From contig DATKVU010000171.1 in assembly GCA_035529915.1 (NCBI GenBank), forward strand, positions 1-53,447: a DNA stretch of 53,447 bases. Direction: 5' to 3'. Source of the stretch: Clostridia bacterium (GTDB lineage: Bacteria; Patescibacteriota; Microgenomatia; UM-FILTER-40-11). The notes under the pieces are model-generated. The model made no database searches and was not told where the DNA came from. It worked only from the letters and a program-made list of their open reading frames with translations. Positions 3,456 through 27,255 of this stretch are shown one piece after another (positions within the stretch are counted from its first letter, which is position 1; each line of letters begins with the position of its first letter). The translations under genes were made by a program, and so were the position numbers.

Positions 3456-4630
3456 GAAAAAAACTTCTACCATTATTCTTAAGCCAATCATTTCGTTCAG
3501 TGGCAGTTTCTTTGCTATCATTTTTCTCTGCCATCTATATTTTCAAGAGTGTTTTAAATACCGGCAGTGGTGAAAAACAAGCATTTTTGGCGGTTTTCCT
3601 TTTCTATTTAGTTCTTTTTATTTTCAAATTTATTGGCGTTTCATTAGCCGAGGAATTGGCCTTAAAGTTTGGTCTTAAAAGACAAGTTTTCATTGGCCAG
3701 TTTTTAAATGCTTTAGCTATTTTGGCTTTTGTCGCTTCTCAAAGCCAATTTCTCTTTTTGTGGCTAGCTTCAGCTCTTTGGGGAGCGGCAATTGGCTTTT
3801 TTTGGTTTGGCTGGCATGGTCTTTTTATCAAAGACGGCTATGCAAGGGAATACGGGAAAGCTTTAGGCTTAGGGAGTTTATTGGAAACAAGTTTTTTGCT
3901 TTTAACTCCTTTTTTAGGAGGAGTCTTAATTGGCGTTTTTGGCTACCAAGCTTTGTTTTGGACCTCTTTCTTTTTTATCTTTTTAGGGGTTTTGGCCATC
4001 CTGACTACTTTTGATCAAAAGACTCATCATGATACCAGTCCTCAAGAAGTCTTGGGACTTTTTTGGACTCACAAAAGGATGACCCTTTCTTACCTAAGCA
4101 GCGGGATTTTGGGGGTGCTTTATTCCCCGGTTTTTATTCTATATGTCTTTTTCTTTCTCAAAAAAGAACTGGCTTTAGGGGGCTTTTTTTCTCTGTCAAT
4201 GATTGTGACGGCGATTGCCAACTACAGCATTGGTAAGCGCGTTGACCAAAAAGGCAAGCGGGACCTGATTGCTTATGGCTCTTACTTTTCTTTTTTAGCT
4301 TGGCTGGGTCGGTTTTTAGTAAGCGCGCCTTCAATCCTTTTTATTTTTGATGTCATTTACCGGCTGGCTGGGGGAATGTTAGGGATTCCTCTGGGTGTTT
4401 TGACCTATCAAAAGGCCCGCGATGGCCATTCCACTGGTCGGGCTCTGCTTTTTAGAGAATTGGCCATCACTTTAGGCTCTGTTTTGGCCTGTCTTTTACT
4501 GATTGTTTTTGTCCTAATGCAGCTGGAGCTTAGATATGTTTTCTTAGGCGGAGCAGGTTTTAGTCTTTTGCCGCTTTTAATTGTTCGTGAACGAGGAATT
4601 TATGGGGAGCCGAATGAATCAAGACAGTAA
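3452..4630 (+). CDS. Multi-pass membrane protein, MFS-transporter-like
   Basis: The ORF is 392 aa with about 10-12 hydrophobic segments. The start forms an ATGA overlap with pth. Confidence 0.55.
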   Translation: MRKKLLPLFLSQSFRSVAVSLLSFFSAIYIFKSVLNTGSGEKQAFLAVFLFYLVLFIFKFIGVSLAEELALKFGLKRQVFIGQFLNALAILAFVASQSQFLFLWLASALWGAAIGFFWFGWHGLFIKDGYAREYGKALGLGSLLETSFLLLTPFLGGVLIGVFGYQALFWTSFFFIFLGVLAILTTFDQKTHHDTSPQEVLGLFWTHKRMTLSYLSSGILGVLYSPVFILYVFFFLKKELALGGFFSLSMIVTAIANYSIGKRVDQKGKRDLIAYGSYFSFLAWLGRFLVSAPSILFIFDVIYRLAGGMLGIPLGVLTYQKARDGHSTGRALLFRELAITLGSVLACLLLIVFVLMQLELRYVFLGGAGFSLLPLLIVRERGIYGEPNESRQ

Positions 4631-4925
4631 AAAAAACCAGCCCAAGTCAATTGGTGACATTTTAAAGAAATTTGACCCCCTAAAAGACAAATATGTTTCC
4701 CGGGAGTTTCAAAAATATGGCTATGACCTAGCCATGGAGTTGGGCGACTTAAAACGCAAGTCTTTATACATTAAGCTAGCCAAAGAAGTGCCCAGAGCAA
4801 TCTTGGAAAAAGCCAGATATTTTGTCAAAGATGCCAATGCCAGGAGCAAGCCAAGACTCTTTATGTGGAAGCTAAAGCAACTTCGGGAGGAAGCTAAGCA
4901 GAAGAAAGCTCCAAATCAGGAATAA
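4602..4925 (+). CDS. Small basic hypothetical protein; start uncertain (TTG 4581, ATG 4602 or ATG 4614)
   Basis: Open frame with GAGGA and GGGGAG Shine-Dalgarno-like sequences ahead of the two ATGs. Its 3' end overlaps the convergent gene by 32 nt. Confidence 0.45.
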   Translation: MGSRMNQDSKKNQPKSIGDILKKFDPLKDKYVSREFQKYGYDLAMELGDLKRKSLYIKLAKEVPRAILEKARYFVKDANARSKPRLFMWKLKQLREEAKQKKAPNQE

Positions 4926-6399
4926 TGAAATCCTCAACTAGACTAGGATAGACTTCCATAGAACAAAAATTAGGATTTAATAACCTGGCGGTTTTTTTAA
5001 GGTCAAAGCCGGTTTCCTGATAGATAAAGTTTAGGAAAGCAGGCCAACCTTTCATGGCCGGGCCTTGTTGCGTTTCCGCCATCAGCCCAATCAATCTATC
5101 CAGTCTGTCTTCATCATGTAAAAACTCATAAAGCTCAGGGAAAAAGCCTTGTGGGTCAATAAAGCCGGTTCCAAAAGCGGGAAGACTGGTAGGGTTTTCT
5201 CCTCTGGATAGCATTCTTATCAGGCCTAAGCTTGGATCTCCATTAATGCCTTTTTTTAAGGCTGTCAGTAATCTATTACTGACTATTTCCAGAGATTCTT
5301 TATTTTTTATAACTAGTTTTGGGGTTTTAGCAATGGGGTAGACAATTTCCGTTGCAAACCATTCAGACAATTGTTTGGCTATGTTCATAATTTCTTCTTT
5401 TTTTCTGTTATTTAATCGACAGAGCAATTGCCTCCATTGAAAATTTTCTTTTTTTCCAAAATCGGCGAGTGGCAATTGGTCTTGCCATGTCCAGGTTCTA
5501 AATTCATGCAAGAAGTGATAGAAGCTTTCTGCAATGGAAGAGGTAGGAAAAGCAAGTGCCGGCCAATGGTAAACTATCGGTTTTAGGTTTTTGCGTTTAG
5601 TTTTGGATGAATGGCCCTCTAGAGAATAAGCGAAATGATTGTATTTTTTTCTTTCTGGAAACAGGTCAATTAAGGCACCAATAAAATTGTCTACATTATT
5701 CATTGGAATTAGTAGGATATGGGGGCAATCTCTTCTTGATAAAGCAAATTCCAAAAAAGTTAAGTTTGGCAGGTATTGACCATCACGCTCAGGGAAAGAA
5801 ATTTGCGCCTTAGAGTACCCATTGTCCCTTATTTCAACTATTTTAAAATTTCTCCAGCAAGATTGCTTAACTTCAGACTTAAGATCCTTTCCTTCTGGGA
5901 GGTCCAGTCTAATCAGCGACTCGATTAATTCTTCGCTAACTTTTGGGTTATGTACTACTGCCACAACATCATTATCAATAAAGCTTGAATTTAGATTTCT
6001 TTTATGACTTGGTTTTTCTCCACTTATTTCATCTACTGATCCAGAAGTCAGAAAAAAACTTATTCCAACTTCAAGCTGTTGAAACCTTCTATAAATTGAT
6101 TTAATTATTTTTCCAGTATTAGTAAGAATTGGTTGTCCTTTGTTTTCGGAGCAGATTCCTATAATTTGTTGTGGTGGAATAATGGTGACTTCGACTTTTC
6201 CTTGATTTAAATTGACGCAAAATTTATTAGTTTTGTCTCTTATCAGGATGGATTTTTCAGAAATACTTTTGAGAAAAGCTCTTTCTTTGTCTTTATTAAG
6301 AAGTATGGAGAGGTGTCCAAAGCCCTTTTTTTCAAGATCTGCAACTTGAGAAACGGTGTAGGACCGCTGTCTCAATTGGCGGCCAAGCCGATTTGTCAC
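4894..6399 (-). CDS. Uncharacterised 501-aa protein; partner of module 1 and distant paralog of 8198..9811
   Basis: Long ORF with a GTG start and no motif I recognise. Its C-terminal ~300 aa share collinear anchors with the 537-aa protein: DCPHILLI, HWPAL, VYPIAKTPKL, AFGTG. Confidence 0.7.
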   Translation of the reverse strand: MTNRLGRQLRQRSYTVSQVADLEKKGFGHLSILLNKDKERAFLKSISEKSILIRDKTNKFCVNLNQGKVEVTIIPPQQIIGICSENKGQPILTNTGKIIKSIYRRFQQLEVGISFFLTSGSVDEISGEKPSHKRNLNSSFIDNDVVAVVHNPKVSEELIESLIRLDLPEGKDLKSEVKQSCWRNFKIVEIRDNGYSKAQISFPERDGQYLPNLTFLEFALSRRDCPHILLIPMNNVDNFIGALIDLFPERKKYNHFAYSLEGHSSKTKRKNLKPIVYHWPALAFPTSSIAESFYHFLHEFRTWTWQDQLPLADFGKKENFQWRQLLCRLNNRKKEEIMNIAKQLSEWFATEIVYPIAKTPKLVIKNKESLEIVSNRLLTALKKGINGDPSLGLIRMLSRGENPTSLPAFGTGFIDPQGFFPELYEFLHDEDRLDRLIGLMAETQQGPAMKGWPAFLNFIYQETGFDLKKTARLLNPNFCSMEVYPSLVEDFIIPDLELSSA

Positions 6400-6442
6400 A
6401 TTTTTGCTTATCCTTTCTATGTTCGGAGAATAGTTGGTAGAA

Positions 6443-6482
6443 GTAAGAAAAAGTTAAGGCGAGGGTAAGAATCTTGTAAGTA
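6443..6482. promoter_or_regulatory. Four GTAAGAA-like direct repeats at about 11-bp phasing, between the module-1 regulator and its partner gene
   Basis: GTAAGAA at 6443, GTTAAGG at 6453, GTAAGAA at 6465 and GTAAGTA at 6476. An AAGAAT...ATTCTT inverted repeat overlaps them. Confidence 0.5.
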
Positions 6483-6499
6483 TTCTTATTTAGCAAGAA

Positions 6500-7768
6500 C
6501 TAGCTTAACCAGCGATAGCCTCGACCCTTGATTGTTTGAATGCTATTTGGTGAAATACCCATTTTTTCAAGCTTCTTCCTTAATAAAGAAATTGTTTGGT
6601 CGATTGCCCAATCAGAATATTTCTGATAGCTATCTTTACCCCAAAGGATTTCTGAAATTTTGTCCCTTGTAATTATTTGGTTCTTGTTTTTCAACAAGGC
6701 CTCCAAAAGTCTGTATTCATTGAGGGTAACTGTTTCTTTCACAGGTAATTCGTTAACAAGAAATTCTCCGGTTTGTTCTGACATTGAAAGACTCTTTTTT
6801 TCCATTTTTTGGTTTTTCACAAAATTTTTGAAGATGGGAGAAAATAGGGTCCATTTATTGCTATGAAATTGAACTACTTTTAAGTTCTCCAAATAATTTG
6901 AAAGTAGATTTTTTGAGGGAGTGTTGCCTGTTACTATTTGGTAAAGAAAGCTCTTTTCTTCTCGAGTAAAAGCCTTCCAAATATCTTCCAGAACAATTTT
7001 TGTTTCCCATTGGCTCACAAGGAAATCAAAAATTTCTTTTTTTGTTTGAAACTTACTCCAGCTTATTAGTTTTAAGCATGTTTTTGTTAATCCTGGGTGA
7101 CCACCGCACAAATCCACGATTGCATTTTTTTGTTTTTCGTTCACCCTATATGCGTATTGACGAACTAAATATTCGGTTGAAAATTTAGAGTCGGCTTTAG
7201 AAAAAAGAGGGGAGTAAATGATATCTTGGATTATTAGCTCTCTCAATCTGCCAAGCTTTTGGATTTCCTTTTGATTGACCATGCTTCTTGTAATTGGGAA
7301 AATAAATTGTATTTTATTTTTGTTTGACTGCCAAAGATTAAAGAGATTATTGAAGAAGTAAAGGGGGTAATCAATTCTCGAAAAACCTTCCAAGATGAAA
7401 ATTATTTTGTCAAATTTTTCTAGACTCTTTTTGCACTTTTCTTTCAAGGAAATAAACGCCATTGCTGTTTCCTCTTCATTTAATCTGCTGCCGTCAAGTC
7501 TATAAATCATGAGCTTGAAGTAACTTTCTGGGTTATTTTCCGTCAGTTCGTCGAGACTTACGTAAACAATTTTATATTTACCGAGTTTGTTGAAGCCTAA
7601 AATGTCTGCATATTGCGTCAGAAAAATCATCTGTCTTATTCCTCCTCCGTGGGGTAACCAAACGATGCTTATGCTTTCTCCTTTTACAAGCGTGGCGAGA
7701 ATTTGGTCCGTGAAGAAGTGCTTTTCGGTTTCGGGAGTTAGAATATGCTGGATTTTTTTCTTTGGCAT
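6500..7768 (-). CDS. Regulator with an N-terminal STAND/AAA-like domain (degenerate P-loop) and a C-terminal OmpR/PhoB-type winged helix
   Basis: The C-terminus LTLNEYRLLEALL...ISEILWG...AIDQTISLLRKKL...IQTIKGRGYRW is typical of the trans_reg_C domain. The N-terminal half has HGGGIRQ, IIFILEGF and GGHPGL motifs. Confidence 0.75.
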   Translation of the reverse strand: MPKKKIQHILTPETEKHFFTDQILATLVKGESISIVWLPHGGGIRQMIFLTQYADILGFNKLGKYKIVYVSLDELTENNPESYFKLMIYRLDGSRLNEEETAMAFISLKEKCKKSLEKFDKIIFILEGFSRIDYPLYFFNNLFNLWQSNKNKIQFIFPITRSMVNQKEIQKLGRLRELIIQDIIYSPLFSKADSKFSTEYLVRQYAYRVNEKQKNAIVDLCGGHPGLTKTCLKLISWSKFQTKKEIFDFLVSQWETKIVLEDIWKAFTREEKSFLYQIVTGNTPSKNLLSNYLENLKVVQFHSNKWTLFSPIFKNFVKNQKMEKKSLSMSEQTGEFLVNELPVKETVTLNEYRLLEALLKNKNQIITRDKISEILWGKDSYQKYSDWAIDQTISLLRKKLEKMGISPNSIQTIKGRGYRWLS

Positions 7769-7835
7769 AGCAATTCTGATTATCTTGGCCGCATTTTAGC
7801 AAAAATCTATATACATATCAAATATATCTCAGGAA

Positions 7836-7864
7836 TTTCAGAAATATTTCAGAAATATTTCAAG
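7836..7864. promoter_or_regulatory. Tandem 11-bp direct repeat (TTTCAGAAATA, 2.6 copies) in the divergent promoter region upstream of regulator 6500..7768
   Basis: The 11-mers at 7836-7846 and 7847-7857 are identical, and a partial copy runs 7858-7864. Confidence 0.5.
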
Positions 7865-7910
7865 CAAGAGGGTGAATTGCTAGATAGAATAGCAGTTAAA
7901 AGGAGACAGA

Positions 7911-8201
7911 ATGCTAAAAAATAGCAGTGCCAGCAGTTTTGTGGTTGATTTAAGCTTTCTTTTTACTAAGCTTAAAGTTGCCTATTCAACGGAAAATCGC
8001 TCTTGTGAGCGAAAGTACTTGGTGGAGGCGAAAAAAGAAGGGGAGGAAATAAGGCTGGCGGAGGATTTTTTTCCGGCCAAGAAGAAGGCAAAGAAATTTA
8101 GCTTTCCTTTTGAGCTTTTCTATTATCTTTTTAAAAGTATAAAGCAAGTTTTTGGAATACTTTTGACGAAGCTAAAGGCAATCTTAGGATTGATTATTTA
8201 A
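7911..8201 (+). CDS. Small hypothetical protein (96 aa) with a hydrophobic C-terminus
   Basis: ATG lies 7 nt after an AAGGAG Shine-Dalgarno. The gene is divergent from the regulator, and its 3' end overlaps the convergent gene by 4 nt. Confidence 0.4.
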   Translation: MLKNSSASSFVVDLSFLFTKLKVAYSTENRSCERKYLVEAKKEGEEIRLAEDFFPAKKKAKKFSFPFELFYYLFKSIKQVFGILLTKLKAILGLII

Positions 8202-9811
8202 GAGTTAAGGGCACTGTCGAGAGTCTCTTTTACCAGCTTTTTTGCTAGCAAAGAGTCTTTTGCATAAAAAGGAGTGAACCAGTTATATAGCTCTTCAAGG
8301 CTCTTGGCTTTCTTTGCAGCGTATCTGATGAGCCTTTGCCATGATTTTCCGTCTTTCCATGTCCAACTTCCGGCTTCAGCAACTAGCTCTCCGAAATAAG
8401 GACGAAGTCCCCGATATCCATCAGTAAAAAAAAGTTGATATTCTCCGGTTCCAAAGATAGGGCCTTGGTTATCTTCTGGAGAAAGTATTTTCATTCTAAT
8501 GCCCATAACTGGAGCTACATTTATAGGATCTTTGATCGTTTCTAATTGGAAGGCCACTAATTTGGCCACTACTTCTTCGCTTGACAGCATCCGGTCAGAC
8601 TCTAGCTCGACTTCCCTGATAATTCCCTCCAGGTTTTTAGAAGAGGCAATTGGGGCAAAGATAACTCTCCTTACGTCTTCGGCTGTTTTCCTAGCTAAGT
8701 CAACCAGTTGACGCTGAGTTTCCGCGGTGTCGAGGCTAGCCCTGATTCTTTCCCAATTAACAGGGTAGCGAGGATCGCAGTCTTGGATGGGGATTAGATT
8801 ACAGGAAGCATAGGTTCTTGGTTTGCGACTAAAGCGAAAGAAGGTCTCGCTTTTGTTCCGTAGGCCAAGATAAGGCCAGTGGTCAGTAGTCACTCTGACT
8901 GCTCGGGGCCGATTTCCTTCCTGATAACGAATTCTTATCATTGGCCGATGTTGCCATTGGATGTCAACAAAAACGCCGTCAATTAAAAAGTCTGGTCTTC
9001 GGTGCAAAATAACCAGCGGGTCACAATCGGCTGCCATGAGAGATTCCATAATATCCTCATGGGGGCCTTTTAAGTAAAAGCCATTCTCGCAAGGATGGTA
9101 AAAGTGACCCAAAATCTGATTATTGGCGCCAAGGATATTTAGCATTGTCGCCGACTTTCTCCAGCTAGATTGCTTTTCCGCCAAAGAAAGCTCCGGGCAA
9201 ACAGTGGTTAGTTTTTGGTTAACGATTTCGGCAAGCTGATGAAAACCAATCAATTCCCGGGGAATTCCTTCAGGGAGAGCCATAATCCCGTCAGTATCAG
9301 CCATTGCCCACAACATTGTTCCTCTAAAAGCAGTTCTGAGTTTGTCAGTCACCTTAATCCAGGGGACAATATCACGGCCAGTACCGCCAACCAAGCCGAC
9401 TAAAAATTCGTTACTTTCGACCCCTCGCTCTTCGAAAGCGTCAAAGACGGCATTAACTACTATCCCTGGAGGCCCCAGGCTGGTTTCTTGATAAATAGCA
9501 GCATGGTGGGGATTGTAGACTAGGTTATGGGGAGGGAGCATAAAAGGAGGAAGATAGGTTAACTTGACACTTTCACCGAAAAAAGCAGTGGTTCTAAATT
9601 CATAACGACTGTTATCTTTGGCAAAATTATCAACTGCGCGGAGCAATCCTTTTAGGTTACCCACCAGGTGAGCAGCGCCTCCATGCCCCATAAGGGTTAG
9701 CAATCTTTTATAGTCTAGTCTTGGAGGTCGAGTTTCGGGAATGTAGGCGAGGGAAGAATCACGGTTAATGATAACTCTCTCTTTTTGCTCTAATTCTAGT
9801 AAGGTTGCCAT
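8198..9811 (-). CDS. Uncharacterised 537-aa protein; partner of module 2 and distant paralog of 4894..6399
   Basis: I chose ATG 9811 (MATLLELEQ) rather than the track start at 9883, which would overlap the upstream gene by 71 nt. The ATG lies 1 nt after the regulator's stop. No motif I recognise. Confidence 0.7.
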   Translation of the reverse strand: MATLLELEQKERVIINRDSSLAYIPETRPPRLDYKRLLTLMGHGGAAHLVGNLKGLLRAVDNFAKDNSRYEFRTTAFFGESVKLTYLPPFMLPPHNLVYNPHHAAIYQETSLGPPGIVVNAVFDAFEERGVESNEFLVGLVGGTGRDIVPWIKVTDKLRTAFRGTMLWAMADTDGIMALPEGIPRELIGFHQLAEIVNQKLTTVCPELSLAEKQSSWRKSATMLNILGANNQILGHFYHPCENGFYLKGPHEDIMESLMAADCDPLVILHRRPDFLIDGVFVDIQWQHRPMIRIRYQEGNRPRAVRVTTDHWPYLGLRNKSETFFRFSRKPRTYASCNLIPIQDCDPRYPVNWERIRASLDTAETQRQLVDLARKTAEDVRRVIFAPIASSKNLEGIIREVELESDRMLSSEEVVAKLVAFQLETIKDPINVAPVMGIRMKILSPEDNQGPIFGTGEYQLFFTDGYRGLRPYFGELVAEAGSWTWKDGKSWQRLIRYAAKKAKSLEELYNWFTPFYAKDSLLAKKLVKETLDSALNS

Positions 9812-9812
9812 C

Positions 9813-11087
9813 TTATTCGGTCCAGCGGTAACCGCGACCACGGATAGTTTGTAATTTTTGAGAAGAAATCCCCAGATGTTCAAGTTTTAATCTGAGCTTG
9901 GAAATAACTTGGTCAATTGCCCAGTCAGAATATTTTTCTTCAAAATCTTTGCCCCAAAGCGCTTGGGCGATTTGGTCGCGGGAAAGAGTAAGGTTTTTCT
10001 TTTTTAGAAATGAGAGCAGGAGGTGGTACTCTTGGAGAGTAATTTTTTCTTTGGCTGGTTGACCGTTGATTAAAATTTCTCCGGTTTTTGCTTCCAGACT
10101 AATTTGAGGAGAGTCACTTTTAAGATTGCTAATAAAATTTTCCAAGAGAGGGGAGAAGAGCTTAGAGGAAGTTTTTTCTTGAACAACAATTCCTAGGTTT
10201 AAAAGTCTTGTGGGGACTTTAGCTTTCTTAAGAGAAGTCCCTTGGTTAATTTGGATTAAACTCTTTTTTTCTTCATCATCAAAAGAATTCCAGATATCTT
10301 CGAGAATAACTTTTATCTCATATTGATCGGCGAGAAAAGCAAGTATTTTTTCTGAATTAGTAGAGTAGTAATTTTGCAAAATCCTTAAGGCGGCCCGGTT
10401 TAAAGAAGCATGACCGCCAGAGAGTTTTTTTATCAAAGAAAGTTGTTTGTGGGAGACTTTATAGCCATATTTTTGAATGAGGGTTTGAAGGCAAACTGCG
10501 TTGTCTTGATTTCCAAGTAGAGGGAAATGAATAAGATTTTGAGAAATAACTTCCTTAAGATGGCCAAGCTTACCAAAGCTTTCTGATTTGAAAATATCAG
10601 TGGAATTGGCAAAGAGAAAGTGAATTTTAGTTTTGTCAACTGACCAAAGGGCATGAAGATTATTAAAAAATGCAATTGGGAAATTATCCTCGTCATTAAG
10701 CTCGTCAAACCTTTCCAGGATGAAAATTAAATGATAGCCCCGACCAACCAATTTCTCAATTTCTTCTTTTAAAACAAAGAATGCTCTTTCGCTGCTTTGG
10801 CTATTGGTTTCTGGGTTAAGGCAACTGAGCATGAGCTGAAAAAAACCTGGAGGAGTTTTTTCAATCAAGTTCTCGGCAGGAACGTTAATTATTTTGTATT
10901 TAGCTAAAGCCTCAAAGCCAAGATGTTTTGCGTTTTGGACCAAAAAACGGCCGGTGCGTCTTCTTCCGGCGTGGCGAACCCAGAAGGCAGTAACGCTTTC
11001 CCCGCGAAGGAAACAGGGCAGGAGAGTTTCGGTAAAGAGCCTTTTTTCTGTTTCTTTGGTGAAAAGATGAGAGCAATTTTTGGACAC
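9813..11087 (-). CDS. Regulator with a STAND/AAA-like domain (degenerate P-loop) and an OmpR/PhoB-type winged helix; paralog of 6500..7768
   Basis: Similar to 6500..7768 along its full length: TKETEKRLFT, KYKIINV, LIFILERF, GGHASL, EKYSDWAIDQ, RGRGYRW. Confidence 0.75.
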   Translation of the reverse strand: MSKNCSHLFTKETEKRLFTETLLPCFLRGESVTAFWVRHAGRRRTGRFLVQNAKHLGFEALAKYKIINVPAENLIEKTPPGFFQLMLSCLNPETNSQSSERAFFVLKEEIEKLVGRGYHLIFILERFDELNDEDNFPIAFFNNLHALWSVDKTKIHFLFANSTDIFKSESFGKLGHLKEVISQNLIHFPLLGNQDNAVCLQTLIQKYGYKVSHKQLSLIKKLSGGHASLNRAALRILQNYYSTNSEKILAFLADQYEIKVILEDIWNSFDDEEKKSLIQINQGTSLKKAKVPTRLLNLGIVVQEKTSSKLFSPLLENFISNLKSDSPQISLEAKTGEILINGQPAKEKITLQEYHLLLSFLKKKNLTLSRDQIAQALWGKDFEEKYSDWAIDQVISKLRLKLEHLGISSQKLQTIRGRGYRWTE

Positions 11088-11234: not shown

Positions 11235-11453
11235 ATGCGTCCTATAATGAATATTGGAAAGACAATCCAAAGACAGATTGTCGCCCCCTTGCAGCAATGG
11301 TTGCTCGAACAAGGAAGATGTGTTGTTTGCGGCCAGGGATTGTCAAAAGGGAGTCGGGAGAAAGTTAGCGGTGGAGTAGTAGTTGGTTGTTCTTGTGGCC
11401 AGCAATATTTTTATTTGCCCAAGGGGAAAATTTATAAAAGATTAAATGTTTGA
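11235..11453 (+). CDS. Small Zn-ribbon-like hypothetical protein
   Basis: Cysteine pairs CVVCGQ and CSCGQ. The ORF is 72 aa. Confidence 0.45.
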   Translation: MRPIMNIGKTIQRQIVAPLQQWLLEQGRCVVCGQGLSKGSREKVSGGVVVGCSCGQQYFYLPKGKIYKRLNV

Positions 11454-11455
11454 AT

Positions 11456-12154
11456 ATGAGTAAAGAAGCTTTAAGAAACTTTGAGGAGCAGGAAAGGGGA
11501 GAAATCGGAGCCAAAGAGGAAGCTTTGTATAAAGTGATTGCCGAAAGCTCTTGTCTGGTCTATCAATTAACTAAAATTCCCATTATTAAAAAGGTAGACC
11601 AGCACCAAAATCCTTTTAAGGGCTGTCTTTTTATGCAAATTCTAGGTTTGGGAGCAGAAAACCTTTACCAAACTCTTTTGCAGACAGCTACTGGCGATAG
11701 AGATGAGGTTCTTAAAGCCTGTAACATTCGTACTCAGCTTTTTTGCCAAGCCTTAAGCGCTCGAATAAATTACAAAGGTTCATTGAGGGCAGCTTGGCAA
11801 AGCGAAGGGGCGGTTTGGAGCAAGGTTTGTGGAGAAGAAGTTTCGGAATTAGTCCAGGAGGCGGATAGTTTTTTGGCTTTAGCGGGAGAAGATGATTTTC
11901 CTGGTTTAAAAGGAAAAATTAGAGAAATTGAAGTGACGAGGGCCGATTTTAAACAAAGAGATGTAGGTCAGTGGTTAAGGTGGGTTTTTGAGCTGGCTTC
12001 TTTTTTAGGCGTCAAAAGCGAACTTAATCTCTTTGAATTTATGGCTGAAAAACAACAAGGGCGAATTGCCATGGGTAAGCAAGTTTTGAGCCCTGAGGAT
12101 AAAAAAGCCGAGTGGCAAAAGCTCTTGCCAAGAGCCAGAAAGTACTTTAATTGA
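11456..12154 (+). CDS. Hypothetical protein
   Basis: ATG lies 3 nt after the upstream stop. The track's start at 11450 is a TTG. No motif I recognise. Confidence 0.5.
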   Translation: MSKEALRNFEEQERGEIGAKEEALYKVIAESSCLVYQLTKIPIIKKVDQHQNPFKGCLFMQILGLGAENLYQTLLQTATGDRDEVLKACNIRTQLFCQALSARINYKGSLRAAWQSEGAVWSKVCGEEVSELVQEADSFLALAGEDDFPGLKGKIREIEVTRADFKQRDVGQWLRWVFELASFLGVKSELNLFEFMAEKQQGRIAMGKQVLSPEDKKAEWQKLLPRARKYFN

Positions 12155-19310: not shown

Positions 19311-20179
19311 TCAAAAAGTGGTAGGAATCAATTTTTTTGAGAATTTGATCCTGGTTCAGGATGAACGCTGGCGGTGTGCCTTAGGCATGCAAGTCGAGCG
19401 CTCCGATGGATCCCGCAAGGGGCTCATCGGAGAGCGGCGAACGGGTGAGTAACGCGTAGGAATCTACCTCTTAGCGGGGCATAGCCTGCCGAAAGGTGGG
19501 GTAATTCCCCATAGTCTCGCAAGAGTAAAGGTCGTAACTGGCCACTAAGAGATGAGCCTGCGTCCTATCAGCTTGTTGGTAGGGTAATAGCCTACCAAGG
19601 CAATGACGGGTAGCTGGGCTGAGAGGTTGACCAGCCACAAGGGAACTGAGACACGGTCCCTACACCTACGGGTGGCAGCAACTAGGAATATTCCACAATG
19701 GGCGAAAGCCTGATGGAGCGACACCGCGTGGAGGATGAAGGTCTTCGGATTGTAAACTCCTTTTGTCCCGCATAGTGCGGGGAGAATAAACTTCTGCTAA
19801 CTACGTGCCAGAAGCCTCGGTAATACGTGGGAAGTAAGCGTTATCCGGATTTATTGGGCGTAAAGCGTTTCGTAGGCGGTTTACTGCATCTTGTTTCAAA
19901 GCCTTAGGCTCAACCTAAGAAAGGGGCAAGAGATGAGTAGACTAGGGTTAGGTCGGGGATGTTGGAATTTGCGGTGGAGCGGTGAAATGCGTTGATATCG
20001 CAAAGAACACCAAGGGCGAAGGCGAACATCTAGGCCTTGACCGACGCTGAGGAACGAAAGCTAGGGGAGCGAAAGGGATTAACATACTAGTCCCATTCAA
20101 CAGTAATGTTGGGTTAAAAACTGGCTATATCGGAGAAACTCCTTGCTATTTTCGGGTTTTATTTGGTAAACTCAAAGTA

Positions 20180-20813
20180 ATGAGGACAACCCCGAGGGAA
20201 GTTGGCTCTCTAAAGGCATCATTCCGACTGAGTACTTTACAAAAAAGCGTTTTAGTCGGGACACTTCTTGGAGATGGAGGATTAAGATATCGAGGGCATG
20301 ATTGCCGTTTGCATATAAAGCATTCTGACAATCAAATATCCTTGGTTCAATTCAAGAGGGAAGTATTTAGTAATATAACCTCGATGAAAATTAGGGTATT
20401 CAAACAAGCTGTAAGCAAAAGAGACTACACTTTTGCCGAGTTTGTTACTCTGACTCATTCAGAGTTTACTAAATATTTCAATCTTTTTTATTCTTCTTCC
20501 AAGAAATCTATTCCTGCTTCGATTGAAAAGTTATTAACCAACCCCCTTAGTTTAGCTGTGGTTTATGGATGACGGTTCAGCAGAGTATGCTGGTGCCTCA
20601 CTCCAAACGCACAGCTTTACTGAAAAGGAGGTTAACCGATTAGTCGAAGTGATTAAAAGGAATTATGAAATTGATGCCGGCAAGAGATTGAATAAGGGGA
20701 AATGGGTTATATATTTTCCAAAAGCAAGTATGCCTAAGCTGCGGAAAGCAATTTGGCATTATATGCTTAAGGATTTTAGATATAAACTCTGTCCTTATTC
20801 CGAGAGAGCTTAA
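20180..20813 (+). pseudogene. Double-motif LAGLIDADG homing endonuclease, split into two frames at the second motif
   Basis: Motif 1 is LVGTLLGDGGL. Frame 1 ends ...LSLAVVYG* at 20572. A different frame continues as MDDGSAEY from 20565. Confidence 0.7.
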
Positions 20814-20936
20814 CCCCGTAGAGACTGTACGCCGGGTCCCGGTATAACACCGGGATATGATACAGTCCGATCTGTGTAGCAATACGCAGAGCTTAATAGA
20901 AATATTGAGTCGCCCCATCTTAGATGGGGTTAGTAT

Positions 20937-20953
20937 CCCGATGTTACATCGGG
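20937..20953 (+). repeat. Copy 1 of the 17-nt palindromic hairpin CCCGATGTTACATCGGG (in the 16S intron)
   Basis: Exact 17-mer. Confidence 0.95.
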
Positions 20954-21072
20954 AGAAAGTAACAGAATGTAGAGACCCCTGTAGTCCTAGCCGTAAACGA
21001 TGCCTGCTAGCTGGTGGCCCCGATTATCGGGGCCGGTGGCGTAAGCTAACGCGTTAAGCAGGCCGCCTGGGG

Positions 21073-21112
<40 letters not shown>

Positions 21113-21842
21113 ACTCGCACAACCAGTGGAGCATGTGGTTTAATTCGATACGAAGCGTTGGACCTTACCCGGGCTTGACATGTTACCGTTTTAGTCTTCC
21201 AGAGATGGAGGACGATCCGCAAGGAAGGTAACACAGCTGCTGCATGGCTGTCGTCAGCTCTAGGCGTGAGCTGTAGGCTTAAGTGCCTCATAGAGCGCAA
21301 CCCCTGTCTTGTGTTAAATATTCACAAGAGACTGCCTCGATTTTTTATCGGGGAGGAAGGAGGGGACGACGTCAAGTCAGCATGGCGCTTATGTCCGGGG
21401 CGACACACATCCTACAATGGCGAAGAACAACGAGCTTAGCGACCTAGTAATGGGAAGCAAATCTCTGAAATTTCGCCTCAGTTCGGATTGAGGGCTGCAA
21501 CTTGCCCTCATGAAGTCGGAATTGGTAGTAATCGCGGATCAGCAGGCCGCGGTGAATACGTTCTCGAGTCTTGTACACACTGCCCGTCAAGTCAACAAAG
21601 TCGGGAGCGCCTGAAGATCCCGCTCAGCGGGATTGAAGGTGAGTTCGGCGATGGGGGCTAAGTCGTAACAAGGTAGCCGTTCTGGAAGGAGCGGCTGGAT
21701 CACCTCCTTTCTAAGGAGCTTTTACACGCCTCCGATGTCACATCGGAGAAACAAAGCCGTCTTGATTAGACGTTAAATAATCAGTCGGAGAAAAGTCATA
21801 TCCGACAAAGATTCCTACCGCTTTTTGATTGTCAAATAAAAA

Positions 21843-21865
21843 CCCCAGATTAATCTGGGGTTTTT
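21843..21865 (+). terminator. Terminator-like hairpin immediately after the 16S processing stem
   Basis: CCCCAGA-UUAA-UCUGGGG followed by five U. Confidence 0.55.
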
Positions 21866-21927
21866 GGTACATGCAAAATCTTTTCTTAATTTTGGTTTTG
21901 TGTTAAAATTTCGATACTTGAAGTTTT

Positions 21928-22002
21928 GGGCAAGTGGCTCAGTGGTAGAGCGATTCTCTGATAAAGAATAGGCCGAAGGTTCGATTCCTTCCTTGCCCAC
22001 CA
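21928..22002 (+). tRNA. tRNA-Ile (GAU anticodon), with CCA encoded
   Basis: Good cloverleaf: acceptor GGGCAAG/CTTGCCC, anticodon loop CTGATAA, T-arm GAAGG-TTCGATT-CCTTC. Confidence 0.9.
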
Positions 22003-22043
22003 CTTTTGCTTCTTGTATTTTCTCTTTCTGTTAAAATAACTTC

Positions 22044-22886
22044 ATGAAATTTTTGAAAAGGCTTTTGCTTTTGCTTTTTCTGGGAATTGGAATTTTGGGG
22101 CTAATTATTTTGGGGACAACGGTATTGGAGGAAGTAAGGGAAATTATCAATGTTGGCCGGGTCGAAGAAAGCAGGGAAGAGGAAATAGCTGAACAGGTCC
22201 TTAATTTTGCGGCCATGTCTGATGTTCACTCGGATATAGAAAGCCTAAAAAGAGCCTTGGAAATCGCTAAAGGCGAAGAAGTCGATTTTATTATTATTAC
22301 TGGCGATTTGACTTCTTTGGGTAAGAGGGATGAACTTTTGGAAGCAAAAAAAGTTTTGGACCAAAGCAGTTTTAAATATTACTCGATTCCGGGCAATCAT
22401 GATCTTTGGTGGAGCCAAAAATTTAATGAAGATGTTTTTGGAGAGGTCTTTGGCCAACACTTTCAGTCTTTTAAAGACAAAGGTGTAAAGTTTATTTTAG
22501 TTGATAATGGTAGTTACTTGGGAGTGGATGAAAAGCAAATGGAATGGATAGAAAATGAAGTGGTTGAATGTGCCCAGATAACCTGTCTGGTTTTTATGCA
22601 TATGCCTCTTAATCATCCTTCTTCTGTACATATTATGGGAGAAGATAGTCCCGAGGTAGCTAGCCAAGCGGCAGAGCTGGTGAAACTGTTGGTAGAAAAT
22701 AAAGTAAAAGAGCTTTTTGCTGGCCATTTACATTTTTCTTCTGAATATGAACTCCAAGGACTTCAGACTACTGTTGTTGGCGCTTTAACCCGAGCTCGCA
22801 ACCCCCAATCACCTAAATTTTTAGAAGTTTGGAAGGGAGAGGAGCTGGAAAAAAAAGAGGTTTTTTTAAGCGACTACACCCCCTGA
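22044..22886 (+). CDS. Calcineurin-like metallophosphoesterase with an N-terminal TM anchor
   Basis: Motifs SDVHS, GDLT, GNHD, MHMP and GHLH. It lies between tRNA-Ile and tRNA-Ala inside the rRNA locus. Confidence 0.8.
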   Translation: MKFLKRLLLLLFLGIGILGLIILGTTVLEEVREIINVGRVEESREEEIAEQVLNFAAMSDVHSDIESLKRALEIAKGEEVDFIIITGDLTSLGKRDELLEAKKVLDQSSFKYYSIPGNHDLWWSQKFNEDVFGEVFGQHFQSFKDKGVKFILVDNGSYLGVDEKQMEWIENEVVECAQITCLVFMHMPLNHPSSVHIMGEDSPEVASQAAELVKLLVENKVKELFAGHLHFSSEYELQGLQTTVVGALTRARNPQSPKFLEVWKGEELEKKEVFLSDYTP

Positions 22887-23048
22887 AATTGCCTGCTACG
22901 CTTCTTGACAGTCTCTGCCTATTTGGATATAATGCTTTTAGTCTCAAAGGAGACAGTTTAATTCATGAGAAGCACTCGAAAACAAGAAATCCTTTATCAG
23001 TTGTATTGTCACGGGCAAGGATAGCGGCTTCTTGTGAACTTTAGATAA

Positions 23049-23069
23049 CTGGCTCCGGCCAGTTTTTTT
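23049..23069 (+). terminator. Rho-independent terminator after the metallophosphoesterase gene
   Basis: CUGGC-UCCG-GCCAG followed by seven U. Confidence 0.6.
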
Positions 23070-23084
23070 GTTCTTTAATTTTAG

Positions 23085-23156
23085 GGGCCAGTAGTTCAAC
23101 GGTAGAATATCCCGTTTGCAACGGGAAGGTAGGCGGGTCAGTACCGCCCTGGTCCA
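23085..23156 (+). tRNA. tRNA-Ala (UGC anticodon) with an atypical T-loop; no CCA encoded
   Basis: Acceptor GGGCCAG/CTGGTCC with the G3:U70 pair. Anticodon loop is TTTGCAA. T-arm GGCGG-GTCAGTA-CCGCC has G at both position 54 and position 58. Confidence 0.75.
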
Positions 23157-23255
23157 CAGGAGTCGACGGCTTGTCCGTCCGAATCCCGATATCAATCGGG
23201 AGAAGGAGGATTCGAATCCGGCTGGCTCCACTGCCAGATAACTGGCAAGAAAATT

Positions 23256-23267
23256 GTACTTTGACAA
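23256..23267 (+). promoter_or_regulatory. boxA-like element GTACTTTGACAA in the 23S leader
   Basis: Identical to the 12-mer at 19299-19310. It sits immediately 5' of the 23S processing stem (23268-23287 pairs with 27088-27108). Confidence 0.45.
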
Positions 23268-23514
23268 GTGAAGAGAAATTTGATGTAGAGTCGCAAACTA
23301 CAGCTAAAGCTAATGGTGGATGCCTAGGTACAACGAGCCGAGGAAGGACGCGCAAGGCGGCGATACTCGTCGGGTAGGTGCCAAGAACCTGCGATCCGGC
23401 GGTTTCCGAATGAGGCAACTCAGTGCAGTGAAAGCTGTGCTATCCCGCTTTCGGCGGGAGGGGTACCCGGGGAACTGAAACATCTTAGTACCCGGAGGAA
23501 GAGAAATCAAATGA

Positions 23515-23546
<32 letters not shown>

Positions 23547-23566
23547 AAGCCTAAACCCCGATGTTA

Positions 23567-23583
23567 CATCGGGGGGTTGTGGG
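23567..23583 (+). repeat. Copy 2 of the 17-nt hairpin (23S domain I)
   Basis: Exact 17-mer; the stem extends to 19 nt with flanking C and G. Confidence 0.95.
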
Positions 23584-23757
23584 ACGCCACTTGGGAGTGT
23601 TTGCGGTAGCAGAAGGCCCTGGAATGGGCTGCCAAAGAAGGTGAAAGCCCTGTATGCGAAACTGCTAAACACCTCGGGCGAGTTCCCAAGTACCATGGGG
23701 AAAGTACCCTGTGGGAATCTGGGGGGGCCACCCTCCAAGGCTAAATACTCGTTGTGT

Positions 23758-23795
<38 letters not shown>

Positions 23796-24371
23796 AAGGG
23801 TGAGACACCCAGTGAAATAGAAACTGAAACCATTGGCTAACAAACAGATGAAGGTCCGACGTAACGTCGGACTGACATCGTGCCTATTGAAGAATGATCC
23901 GGCGAGTCTACGTTCAAGTGCTAGTTTAACCCCGCCGAGCGGGGGTAGGCGTAGTGAAAGCAAGCCTGAATAGGGCGTTAAGCGCTGGACGTAGAACCCG
24001 AAACCGGGCGAGCTAACCTTGAGCAGGGTGAACCCCGATGAAAATCGGGGAGAGGCCCGAACCCGTTGCTGTTGCAATAGCATGGGATGACTTGAGGTTA
24101 GGGGTAATATGCTAATCGAGCCCGGAGATAGCTGGTTCTCCCCGAAATATATTTTGGTATAGCCCATCTGTATAAACCAGAGGGGTAGAGATACTGAATG
24201 GTGGCAGGGCAGCAATGTCTTGTCCTCAACCAAACTCCGAATACTTTGGTGTTCACAGATGGAGTCAGACTAGTCGGGCTAAGCTGATTAGTCGAAAGGG
24301 AAACAGCCCAGACTTGCAATTAAGGCCTCTAAGTTTTAGCTAAGTAAAAGGAAGTTAAATTCCTCAGACAC

Positions 24372-24402
<31 letters not shown>

Positions 24403-24433
24403 CAAAGAAAGCGTAACAGCTCACTGGATGAGT

Positions 24434-24450
24434 CCCGATGTTACATCGGG
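24434..24450 (+). repeat. Copy 3 of the 17-nt hairpin (23S)
   Basis: Exact 17-mer. Confidence 0.95.
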
Positions 24451-25124
24451 AGGGGAATTTAGCGCCGTAGATGATCGAGAATAAGCTAAACGCCGAAATT
24501 CAAGATTGCTCGCTTATGCGAGTAGTGGTAGGGGAGCGTTCCGTGGGCGGTGAAGCCCTTCCGTAAGGTCAGGGTGGAGCGCACGGAAGTGAGAATGCCG
24601 GAATGAGTAACGAAAGTCCGATGAGAATTCGGACCGCCGAATACCCAAGGTTTCCCACGCAACGTTCGTCGACGTGGGGTAAGTCGGGACCTAACATGAG
24701 GCCAGCTAAACTGGCGTAGTGGATGGACAACAGGTTGATATTCCTGTACAGAGAAAGTGTCGTTATTTTCGCGCAAGCGGAAACAAGGTTCTGCAGACGT
24801 AAGTTTGCAGGGTCTTATTACCTGGGGACTGACGAAGTTGGAATAATCGAGTCAAGCGGTGAAGACGCTTGATTTAAGCATTGAAATGGTTTTGATTGGA
24901 AAATCCGTTAGAACGTTTAAATTGAGGTGTGAATAAAAGTTCTGCTGCAAGGCGGAGCAATTCGATGAGGTTCAGCTTCCCAGAAAAGGTTCGCAGGGAG
25001 ATGCTTTTTTTCCCGTACCGCAAACCGACACAGGTGGGTTGGTCGAGTAGACTAAGGCGAGCGAGAGAAGGAGGTTTAAGGAACTCGGCAAACAATCTGG
25101 ACGTAAGCTATGCAAGATGTCCTG

Positions 25125-25141
25125 CCCGATGTTACATCGGG
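25125..25141 (+). repeat. Copy 4 of the 17-nt hairpin (23S)
   Basis: Exact 17-mer. Confidence 0.95.
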
Positions 25142-25451
25142 CCACAGCAAAAGATTGCCAAGGGACTGTTTAACTAAAACACAGGTCTCTGCAAACCCGT
25201 AAGGGGAAGTATAGGGGCTGCGGCCTGCCCAGTGCCCGTAGGTCAAAGCTTAGGGTGACCCCGACGCAAGTCGGGATAGCTCTGGGCCTAAGCCCGGGTG
25301 AACGGCGGCACTAACTATAAGTGTCCTATGGTAGCGAAGTCCCTCGTCTGGTGAGTTCAGACCCGCACGAAAGGCTTAACCACTTGGCAACTGTCTTGAA
25401 CCTTCACTCGGTGAAATTGAAATGGCTGTGAAGATGCGGCCTATATGCTCT

Positions 25452-25482
<31 letters not shown>

Positions 25483-26093
25483 TACTTGGTACTGAAATGA
25501 AACGATGAACTGTTTAGAATAGGAGGGAGCCGCAAGGCGTCAGTGAAATACCTCTCTTTCGTTGTTTTCAGATCTAACTCATTCTGGCTGGAGACGCCAG
25601 AGGGGACCGTGCCAGGGAGACAGTTTGACTGGGGCAGTCGCTTGCTAAAAGGTAACGCAAGCTCACAAAGGTACCCTAAGCCCGGATGGAAATCGGGTGG
25701 TTTGTGTAAAGGCACAAGGGTGCTTGACTGCGAGACTGACAGGTCGAGCAGGTGCGAAAGCAGGTCTTAGTGATCCCCCGCCATTCCGTGGTTGGAGGCG
25801 GGGCTTAAAGGATAAAAGTTACCCCGGGGATAACAGAGTAGTCGCGCCCGAGCGTCCACAGCGCCGGCGCGGTTCGCTACCTCGATGTCGGCTCACCACA
25901 TCCTGGCGCTGAAGAAGGTGCCAAGGGTTGGACTGTTCGCCCATTAAAGTGGTACGTGAGCTGGGTTCAGAACGTAAATTACATTGCGTTCTATTGCAGT
26001 AATGCAGTACAATAAATCTGACTAAAATCGGTGAAACCCTCTTTCGGTTTTTAGAACTGGCCGAGAAGGGTAATACCGAGGGTAAGTCAAGAG

Positions 26094-26630
26094 GTGAGAA
26101 AAGAAGAGCTTGCTTATATTGCGAAGCAAACAAGCTTGGCTTATATTGCTGGTTTTCTAGATGGAGATGGATGTATTATGCTTCAGTTGGTATCTCGTAA
26201 GGATTATATTCTTGGATATCAGATAAGGGCAAGCATTGTTTTCTATCAAAAACAGAAATATAGGTCTTTTTTAGAAGAGATTAAGGAAAAGTTGAAATAT
26301 GGTTATATCAGGGAGCGAAACGATGGTATAGTGGAATACACTATCGTCGGATTTGAACCAGTAAAAAAGATTTTAACCTTACTTTATCCTTATTTGAAAC
26401 TGAAAAAGCAACAAGCCAAACTTGCGCTAGAAGTTATTGAGAAAATTCCGAAAGAAGTTAGGTTGCCAAAAAGAACGAAATTAAGCGCTGAGCTTCTAAT
26501 GGAATTATCATATGAAGTTGATAAATTTGCATCTTTGAATTATTCAAAGAGACGAACCAACACTTCAGCACAAGTAAAAGAATTCTTAATATCTCACAAT
26601 CTCTTGAATCCCGTAGAGACTGATCCCTAG
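26094..26630 (+). CDS. Single-motif LAGLIDADG homing endonuclease, I-CreI-like
   Basis: [36 protein letters not shown] and [15 protein letters not shown] are collinear with I-CreI as I recall it. GTG start. The 3' end of the ORF runs into the intron R element. Confidence 0.8.
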
Positions 26631-26659
26631 GTCCATCTAGTCAATGGAAGTAAGGTGAC

Positions 26660-26676
26660 CCCGATGTTACATCGGG
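26660..26676 (+). repeat. Copy 5 of the 17-nt hairpin (in the 23S intron)
   Basis: Exact 17-mer; the stem extends to 19 nt. Confidence 0.95.
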
Positions 26677-27137
26677 GATACGTCAGCTCCTAAGTTAGTA
26701 AGACTTTAACTTAGGATGAAGATATAGTCCATGCCATAAGAAATTATGGAATAACATGCGTGAGACAGTTCGGACTCTATCCAGAGCATACGTTCGATTC
26801 TTGAGGGGAGTCCTCCACAGTACGAGAGGACCTGGAGGAGGGAACCTCTGGTGTGCCAGTTGTTTCTGTCAAGAGCACCGCTGGGTAGCTATGTTCCTTA
26901 AGGATAACCGCTGAAAGCATCTCAAGTGGGAAGCCCACCCCAAGATTAGGAATCGTTGCCAGCTTAGCTGGCGAGAGACCCCTGGGAGATTACCAGGTTG
27001 ATAGGCGGCCGGTGTAAGTGCAGCAATGCATTTAGCCTAGCCGTACTAATGGTCGAATGTAGTTTGTTTACCAAGCTTAGCTTGGTTTACATCGAGTTTT
27101 CTCTTCACTATTCAGAGAGCAATTTGCTATAATATTG

Positions 27138-27255
27138 TGCTGGTACTTTGAGCGAGCTGGAACTACCTGATCCCATTTCGAACTCAGAAGTAAAACGGTT
27201 CAGCGCCGACGATAGTGTCTGGGCAACTGGATGCGAAAATAGGTCAGTGCCAGCA
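27138..27255 (+). rRNA. rrf: 5S rRNA
   Basis: Helix I pairs TGCTGGTAC with GTGCCAGCA. Internal CCCATTTCGAACTCAGAAGTAAAAC is present, and a T-run follows. Confidence 0.9.

Follow-up and report, generated by a model that had tools for sequence, protein, structure and literature searches.

Introduction

The large SARP regulators, exemplified by Streptomyces AfsR, have an OmpR-type winged helix and, in the same protein, a STAND/AAA+-like nucleotide-binding oligomerisation domain (NOD), and their target direct repeats are spaced by 11 or 22 bp, the last one being about 8–10 bp away from the −10 element, where it replaces the −35 element (PMC10936776). A second kind of system, AbiE/MenAT, consists of a winged helix–turn–helix (wHTH) antitoxin gene coupled to a gene for a DUF1814 nucleotidyltransferase, with repeats in the promoter (PMC3985639, PMC7319586). 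Here, we analyse a locus that resembles both, at positions 4894–11087 of a 53,447-nt stretch of DNA, hereafter the window, which is contig DATKVU010000171.1 of assembly GCA_035529915.1 (named Clostridia bacterium, GTDB lineage Patescibacteriota; Microgenomatia; UM-FILTER-40-11). A two-gene module that has not been described before is present at the locus in two copies, which are ancient paralogs. It has so far been seen in Patescibacteria-type genomes only, and in it the gene of a regulator (R) adjoins the gene of a large protein (L). The explanation that we favour, with slightly better than even confidence, is that R, a STAND-like factor, controls and closely works with L, a new nucleotidyltransferase-like enzyme.

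Relative to AfsR, the order of domains in R is reversed, with the NOD-like part N-terminal and the wHTH C-terminal; R also lacks the BTAD, the TPR sensor and the Walker A lysine, measures about 420 aa rather than about 1000 aa, and comes from Patescibacteria rather than actinomycetes. With AbiE/MenAT the module shares a two-gene operon in which a wHTH regulator comes first and a Pol-beta-type nucleotidyltransferase second, the latter assigned here by motif and model. However, neither R nor L has sequence or hidden Markov model (HMM) similarity to AbiE/MenAT proteins or matches their family models, R carries an AAA+-like domain and an OmpR-type rather than an AbiEi-type wHTH, and the module lies in conserved chromosomal synteny rather than in a mobile or patchy context. 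Both parts of the module belong to known superfamilies, and pairs of a regulator with a nucleotidyltransferase are already known; the L family, the R architecture of a degenerate NOD followed by an OmpR-type wHTH, and the obligate pairing of the two were not found in the libraries and literature searched. Literature searches for PF14516 and for a Patescibacteria nucleotidyltransferase with a winged helix returned no paper.

Two paralogous regulator–large protein pairs

All four minus-strand open reading frames (ORFs) that a first-pass annotation, made from the sequence alone, had placed at this locus are present. The first pair consists of R1 (6500–7768, 422 aa) and L1 (4894–6399, 501 aa, GTG start), and the second of R2 (9813–11087, 424 aa) and L2 (8198–9811, 537 aa counted from its ATG; the mechanical ORF reaches further, to a TTG at 9883). 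Aligned along the whole chain, R1 shares 41% identity with R2 (E 1e-114). The distant paralogy claimed for L1 and L2 is real and not due to chance, because they align at 24% identity across 272 aa (E 8e-11) and a single family HMM matches both at E 1e-117 or better. Every anchor string quoted in support of these relationships was found, but the stretch that the two regulators have in common is KYSDWAIDQ, occurring as QKYSDWAIDQ in R1 and EKYSDWAIDQ in R2, and so is one residue shorter than had been annotated. As the annotation also had it, the R2 stop codon and the L2 ATG are separated by a single base (taa-g-atg), which makes translational coupling of R2 and L2 likely, while the gap between R1 and L1 is exactly 100 nt.

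R is a pseudo-STAND/OmpR-type transcription factor

The two domains proposed for the regulators, an AAA/STAND-like part followed by an OmpR/PhoB-type winged helix, were both recovered. At the C-terminus (approximately residues 347–420), R1 (65.1 bits) and R2 (54.4 bits) match Pfam Trans_reg_C, whose cut-off is 26.2. With the AlphaFold2 model of R1 (predicted local distance difference test score, pLDDT, 86; predicted template modelling score, pTM, 0.71) as the query, Foldseek retrieves, at E 6e-7 to 2e-6 and probability 1.00, AAA+/STAND proteins that carry a winged helix at the C-terminus, including PAB2304, archaeal Orc1/Cdc6, CED-4, Apaf-1, RuvB and RFC, the PDB entries within this range being 2qen, 1w5t, 2qby, 2a5y, 3sfz and 1z6t. 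A match of R to Pfam AAA_35 is weak (E 0.003). By Foldseek on the model, R has the alpha/beta fold of P-loop NTPases together with a helical lid; the lid carries a conserved GGHPG (GxP-like) motif, and an FFNNL motif is also conserved. The full-length protein shares its AAA+ base, lid and C-terminal winged helix with Orc1/Cdc6 and the COG1672-like PAB2304, and differs from these in that its winged helix is of OmpR type, its P-loop is degenerate and nothing indicates a role in replication.

The position of Walker A reads PHGGGIRQ in R1 and RHAGRRRT in R2, without GK[ST] and with the lysine lost, and that of Walker B reads IIFILEGF and LIFILERF, respectively, where the acidic pair is not conserved. 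G42 is the sole invariant residue at these positions, and neither Walker motif is recognisable. Because the Walker A lysine is lost, R probably does not hydrolyse ATP but binds a ligand or a nucleotide. Pfam finds no Response_reg receiver domain in R1 or R2, which sets them apart from two-component response regulators, and NCBIfam response-regulator models score far under their cut-offs and cover solely the DNA-binding part (approximately 320–420). Nor does Pfam find TPR, WD40 or LRR sensor repeats; the AAA+-like domain, the lid and the wHTH fill the 422 aa. There is no BTAD match either, and the wHTH sits at the extreme C-terminus, which is not the arrangement of the SARP family. Since an AAA+/STAND-like fold, a degenerate P-loop and an OmpR-type wHTH are combined in one chain, R is a compact pseudo-STAND/OmpR-type transcription factor. 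Its predicted recognition helix, DWAIDQxISxLRKKL, is nearly invariant across R1-type and R2-type proteins, which suggests that the two types recognise similar half-sites.

L carries a nucleotidyltransferase-like signature

In the large proteins, the first-pass annotation had recognised no catalytic or binding motif. This stands as far as family libraries are concerned: neither L1 nor L2 matches a family in Pfam, NCBIfam, PADLOC, PHROGs or PDB sequences, they are not known housekeeping enzymes, and the single library match for L, to VMAP-M15 (E 0.03), is at chance level. It does not stand at the level of residues, where the best-conserved positions make up a signature of Pol-beta-type nucleotidyltransferases. 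Across 38 aligned, divergent L members (mean column identity 20%), D144 alone is invariant (38/38), D142 is present in 37 and G120 in 36 members, and the positions conserved in at least 90% are G120, D142, R183, G410, G412 and P476. Position 189 is D or E in 28 of the 38, in the context h[DE]h (E189 in L1). These residues follow the superfamily pattern of hG[GS], then [DE]x[DE] on the following strand, then a third carboxylate in h[DE]h, with L2, which has Asn at the third site, as the exception; the L2 motif LVGGTGRD...DTDG is like the class II GGxVRD...DxD. That D144 is invariant and D142 and G120 nearly so among such divergent proteins indicates a preserved active site.

The AlphaFold2 model of L1 (pLDDT 78.8, pTM 0.81) places a helix at 94–108, a strand at 113–118, G120, a helix at 120–126 and a strand at 143–149 with D142xD144. 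This modelled strand–turn–helix–strand is the canonical Pol-beta nucleotidyltransferase core, and outside it the model is beta-rich in its middle region and helical in its C-terminal domain. Conservation within L1-type proteins is highest in the C-terminal ~120 aa, and the core region is variable apart from G..DxD. When the model was compared with the PDB by Foldseek, 28 of the best 50 matches, none of them significant, were Pol-beta-type nucleotidyltransferases representing ten different proteins (DncV, CdnG, yeast poly(A) polymerase (PAP), Pla1, TUT4, TUT7, CutA, Cid1, NF90 and Pol mu), and the best viral fold match was a mycobacteriophage tRNA nucleotidyltransferase (E 0.07, probability 0.91, template modelling scores 0.32/0.39, 421 columns). 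With class II CCA/PAP enzymes, TUTases and cGAS/DncV, L shares hGG(x)2[RK][DE]...DxD, the predicted core and a largely helical body, while it differs from Pol-beta enzymes in that a long basic insert separates its G motif from DxD and a beta-rich region of about 140 aa follows the core. Taking model and motifs together, we consider it likely that L adopts the fold of a nucleotidyltransferase and retains the active site. No membrane segment was found in L (maximum KD19 1.28).

The family is small. Word-indexed searches returned 2 relatives for L2 and 11 for L1, an exhaustive profile search against 1.84 billion cluster representatives placed just 52 clusters in the L family, and a profile scan of genome contigs with a narrow search pattern gave one locus; all homologues with a source name are labelled Patescibacteria. 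The only Pfam matches among the 38 L members are wHTH domains, confined to fusion forms, and the N-terminal extensions of two long L proteins, P0062 and P0064, gave no match to an R-like domain.

Other identities for L were tried and rejected. A housekeeping CCA/poly(A) polymerase role is at odds with the restriction to 52 clusters, the varying copy number and the fast evolution of the genes. A GT-A glycosyltransferase with a DxD motif, prompted by an RmlA-like neighbour in related loci, was dropped as no glycosyltransferase is among the top fold matches. Phage origin of the module was dropped as well, there being no relative among viral contigs. Nor does the module qualify as CBASS: PADLOC gives no match, the fold matches to DncV and CdnG lie at E 0.1–0.24, and the neighbouring genes are housekeeping genes.

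The pairing of R with L is conserved

Related loci with enough flank to show the neighbour of L (L001, L003–L009, L011–L015, L018 and L019) all have a full-length R-family gene adjoining L, with R-HMM E-values of 1e-89 to 1e-188, so the adjacency that the first-pass annotation had proposed as a conserved feature holds wherever it can be seen. R is mostly on the same strand, immediately upstream of L and abutting it; in L005 and L011 it lies convergently downstream. The layout of two modules, with the same genes on either side, recurs in L006 and L013, and the copy number ranges from one (L008, L009) to three or four in other loci. Pairs join R1-type to L1-type genes and R2-type to L2-type genes (Mantel r 0.39, 18/2000 permutations), from which we conclude that the duplication is old and that the partners have co-diverged.

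Some members depart from the simple pair. Distant L proteins of 650–890 aa carry one or two C-terminal winged-helix domains of MarR/TrmB/IclR-like type, and these fused proteins likewise have an R neighbour. In L003/L004 and L014, a gene for an RmlA-like sugar-1-phosphate nucleotidylyltransferase stands between R and the L1-type gene, and in L001 weaker PF00483-type genes precede the L genes.

The module is a variable island at a fixed position

The genes around the module are housekeeping genes, encoding a phosphoribosyltransferase (PRTase), peptidyl-tRNA hydrolase (Pth), an MFS transporter, an ATP-cone/Mrr_cat protein and thioredoxin reductase. In all genomes seen, the module keeps its position between the Pth/PRTase/MFS and the ATP-cone/Mrr_cat genes, and no mobile-element genes were found near it. 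Within this fixed frame the module itself diverges quickly. Between L006 and L013, the flanking proteins are 81–87% identical, compared with 95% for the first regulator (R_a), 41% for its partner (L_a), 47.5% for the second regulator (R_b) and 56% for L_b, and the R_a/L_a junction is the exact end of a nucleotide block of 93% identity. For the window against L006, identity is 61–65% in the flanks, 48–49% in R, 40% in L1 and 26% in L2. Against L018, L2 is at 81%, which equals the background, and R2 is lower at 67%. Since identity falls inside the module relative to its flanks, and the conserved block ends at a gene junction, the module is a variable, recombining island at a fixed chromosomal site.

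Decay of module copies is visible in L001, where an L gene is split into ORFs of 364 and 174 aa (7316–8931) and where 7092–7315 and 8932–9145 are remnants of R-gene 3′ ends (...GYRW...) lying directly upstream of CTTAC repeats. These remnants and the split gene point to decay and turnover of module copies.

Phased repeats at the module promoters

The 100-nt gap between R1 and L1 carries phased direct repeats, as had been annotated. They are four CTTA[CA] units in exact 11-bp phase at 6443–6480 (minus strand), a pattern with one match and 0 expected in shuffles. A −10-like TATTCT lies 10 nt downstream of the last pentamer and is followed by a conserved leader and ribosome binding site, CATAGAAAGGA; no −35 element is present. 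We propose 6443–6480 as a candidate R operator forming part of an activator-dependent L1 promoter. According to the SARP rule, repeats are 11 or 22 bp apart and the 3′ repeat lies about 8 bp from the −10 (PMC10936776), and judged by its direct repeats and −10 spacing the L1 promoter is SARP/PhoB-like in layout. The phased CTTAC layout also precedes L genes or their operons in 8 other loci; it stands before L1-type genes (L019, L006, L013, L001 and L015) or before the RmlA-like gene that is inserted ahead of the L1-type gene (L003 and L014).

Both regulator genes have promoters with a −35 element. The R1 promoter, TTGATA-17-TAAAAT with an extended −10 TG (7821–7793, minus strand), is abutted by direct repeats of (C)TGAAAT/TTCTGAA, four to five in number and spaced by 11/9 bp (7824–7863, minus strand; 0 expected), and promoter and repeats are both kept in L006, L001 and L003. 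The R2–L2 operon is preceded by TTGACA-17-TATAAT (11143–11115), a 12/12 match, whose −35 is overlain by TTCTTAC/TTCTTGAC half-sites (11156–11139); further upstream lie the inverted repeat GGAAATCTAGGCTTTCC (11183–11167) and TTGCTTGAG (11213–11205), all four elements being on the minus strand and conserved in L006, L003 and L009. The phased repeats are unique within the window. In other loci, TTCTKAM-N4-TTCTKAM has six exact matches, four of which fall just after an R gene or remnant or just before L (three in L001, one in L015), the remaining two lying elsewhere in L003 and L019. Within the window, this generalised pattern also hits 30945–30962.

Two further elements were noted in the window. 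At 30945–30972 (plus strand), TTCTTACcaggTTCTTACctctcCTTGAC contains 11-bp-phased half-sites as at the L1 promoter, about 210 nt upstream of an ORF (31182–31937, plus strand) for a 251-aa LPxTG surface protein, in which an N-terminal signal/transmembrane segment and a Pro/Thr-rich linker are combined with an LPVTG sortase signal at the C-terminus; this gene may be an additional target of R. In the divergent intergenic region between R1 and a small plus-strand ORF described below, upstream of the TGAAAT repeats, lies an inverted repeat TTGCTA-N7-TAGCAA (in the window TGCTATTCTATCTAGCA, 7878–7896, minus strand) that is conserved in L006 and L001, and that may serve another factor, or the promoter of the small ORF, as an operator.

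Proposed mechanism and alternatives

In the explanation that we favour, R would be a ligand-responsive, probably non-hydrolysing STAND-like transcription factor, with its N-domain as the AAA+/STAND-like oligomerisation or sensing part joined to the OmpR/PhoB-type winged helix. It would bind TTCTKAM/CTTAC half-sites at 11-bp spacing. At the L1 promoter, the R sites would stand in for the missing −35, with activation by analogy to SARP/PhoB, and at the R1 and R2 promoters the putative sites lie over or beside the −35, which suggests autoregulation. The output of the module would be L, a soluble protein of about 500 aa with the Pol-beta-superfamily core hG[GS]...DxD...h[DE]h, which, to judge from its motifs, probably transfers a nucleotidyl or related phospho-group to an acceptor. 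The likely R2–L2 translational coupling and the wHTH fusions in distant L proteins suggest that R and L probably act together, on or near nucleic acid, beyond the relation of a regulator to its target.

Several observations weigh against this explanation. PDB sequence searches with single L sequences and with profiles returned nothing meaningful, none of the 38 L members matches a nucleotidyltransferase family in Pfam (PolyA_pol, NTP_transf_2 or SMODS), and there is no significant single fold match for L, the best having E 0.07–0.1. In hhalign comparisons with E. coli CCA/PcnB, both the L family and the L2 clade align the expected GG motif, at probabilities of only 2.4% and 0.5%. The spacing between the G motif and DxD is 22–45 aa in L, compared with 9–13 in classical members. 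In L2 and its close relatives the third carboxylate is Asn, so L2 may be catalytically impaired. On the regulatory side, the simple 7-mer TTCTTRC is not enriched window-wide (22 occurrences versus 24 expected), which leaves only the phasing as special, and the repeats differ somewhat in sequence among the three promoter regions (CTTAC versus CTGAAAT).

Roles in defence or at the cell surface are still speculative, as the first-pass annotation had said. A toxin–antitoxin or abortive-infection system of AbiE/MenAT type, with R as an autoregulating antitoxin and L as a nucleotidyltransferase toxin (for example, one that modifies tRNA) in a variable hotspot, would account for a gene order in which that of a wHTH regulator immediately precedes, and is coupled to, that of a nucleotidyltransferase, for the promoter repeats, for the copy number of 1–4, for the split L and R remnants in L001, and for a module that evolves much faster than its flanks (41–56% versus 81–87% between L006 and L013, where the 93%-identical block ends at the R/L junction). 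We nevertheless regard it as unlikely, given that PADLOC has no match at E<=1 and Pfam none to AbiEii/DUF1814, that R and L are about twice the size of AbiEi and AbiEii, and that the module keeps a constant syntenic position with neither mobile-element genes nor a relative on a viral contig. The L1 promoter, moreover, appears activator-dependent rather than repressed, and L2 is conserved at background level between the window and L018. Somewhat less probable still is a role in envelope or glycan modification, in which L would be a LicD/fukutin-like phosphotransferase of nucleotidyltransferase fold using a nucleoside-diphosphate donor from the RmlA-like enzyme, with R purely transcriptional. 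The RmlA-like gene that follows the CTTAC repeats between R and the L1-type gene in L003/L004 and L014, an arrangement with L that we take to be analogous to LicC/LicD, speaks for it, as do the weaker PF00483-type genes before L in L001, the phased TTCTTAC site upstream of the LPxTG-protein gene and a fast evolution typical of surface-related loci. Yet neither the window nor any L2-type module contains the RmlA-like gene, L has no membrane segment and no LicD or glycosyltransferase match in sequence or fold, and an envelope enzyme does not readily account for the tandem wHTH fusions or for translational coupling to a DNA-binding protein.

It is also conceivable, but very improbable in our view, that L is a nucleotidyltransferase-like pseudoenzyme or scaffold that binds R or a ligand and tunes DNA binding by R. 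The Asn at the third carboxylate in the L2 clade and the Q, A or S of some other members fit such a role, as does a core that is variable outside G..DxD while the C-terminal ~120 aa are the most conserved part of L1-type proteins, and coupled translation suggests a 1:1 complex; against this stands the retention of D144 in 38/38, D142 in 37/38 and G120 in 36/38 very divergent members. Finally, the module could be a self-contained, Patescibacteria-specific signalling or conflict system, in which L makes a nucleotide-derived signal, or tags a target with one, and the degenerate nucleotide pocket of its cognate R reads it; we hold this to be distinctly unlikely, and equally so the corollary that phages, or the host cell of the epibiont, drive the rapid allelic turnover in an arms race.

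The biology of Patescibacteria is difficult to investigate, and their tiny genomes contain few regulators that can be recognised. In this setting, a conserved, duplicated, fast-evolving and lineage-specific module couples a sensor-like transcription factor to an unrecognised enzyme-like family. Were L an active nucleotidyltransferase, as we favour, it would be a new branch of the Pol-beta superfamily, within a trio of regulator, operator and enzyme that can be tested in vitro, and were the module a defence or host-interaction system, it would be among the few described in the phylum. For an uncultivated lineage, the conserved, putative 11-bp phased operator offers something rare, a cis-regulatory prediction open to direct test.

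Neighbouring genes and other features of the window

Two small plus-strand ORFs accompany the module, and they share no homology with each other. The first (4614–4925, 103 aa, DILKKFDPLKDKYVSREFQKYGYDLAMELGD...) is convergent with L1, whose 3′ end it overlaps; in other genomes it always follows an L1-type gene, it is 81–87% identical between genomes whose housekeeping genes are 61–87% identical, and it has a weak match to FadR_C (E 2e-4). The second (7911–8201, 96 aa) is convergent with L2 and divergent from R1, and has no family match. It accompanies L2-type genes in L006 (8143), L003 (7350), L009 (7387) and also L018, and its homologues share an N-terminal ...LSFGxLFxxLKITY... and a C-terminal ...LGLPx. 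Both are uncertain members of the module.

On the other side of the module, a 72-aa ORF with a zinc-ribbon-like CxxC...CxC pattern (11235–11453, plus strand) is divergent from R2, and is followed by a 234-aa ORF (11450–12154, plus strand) with no family match, which changes unusually fast, with 41% identity in L018 against a background of about 80%. Cumulative GC skew shows no turning point within the window. Downstream of the module lies an rRNA operon (19333–27255) with several insertions. Its 16S gene is 2378 nt long compared with a 1533-nt model, owing to an insertion of about 850 nt with an ORF at 20180–20572; a 280-aa ORF (22044–22886) occupies the spacer between tRNA-Ile and tRNA-Ala; and the 5S gene lies 1.1 kb after the 23S gene, with a 178-aa ORF (26094–26630) in between. 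Insertions of this kind in rRNA genes are typical of Patescibacteria, also known as the candidate phyla radiation (CPR).

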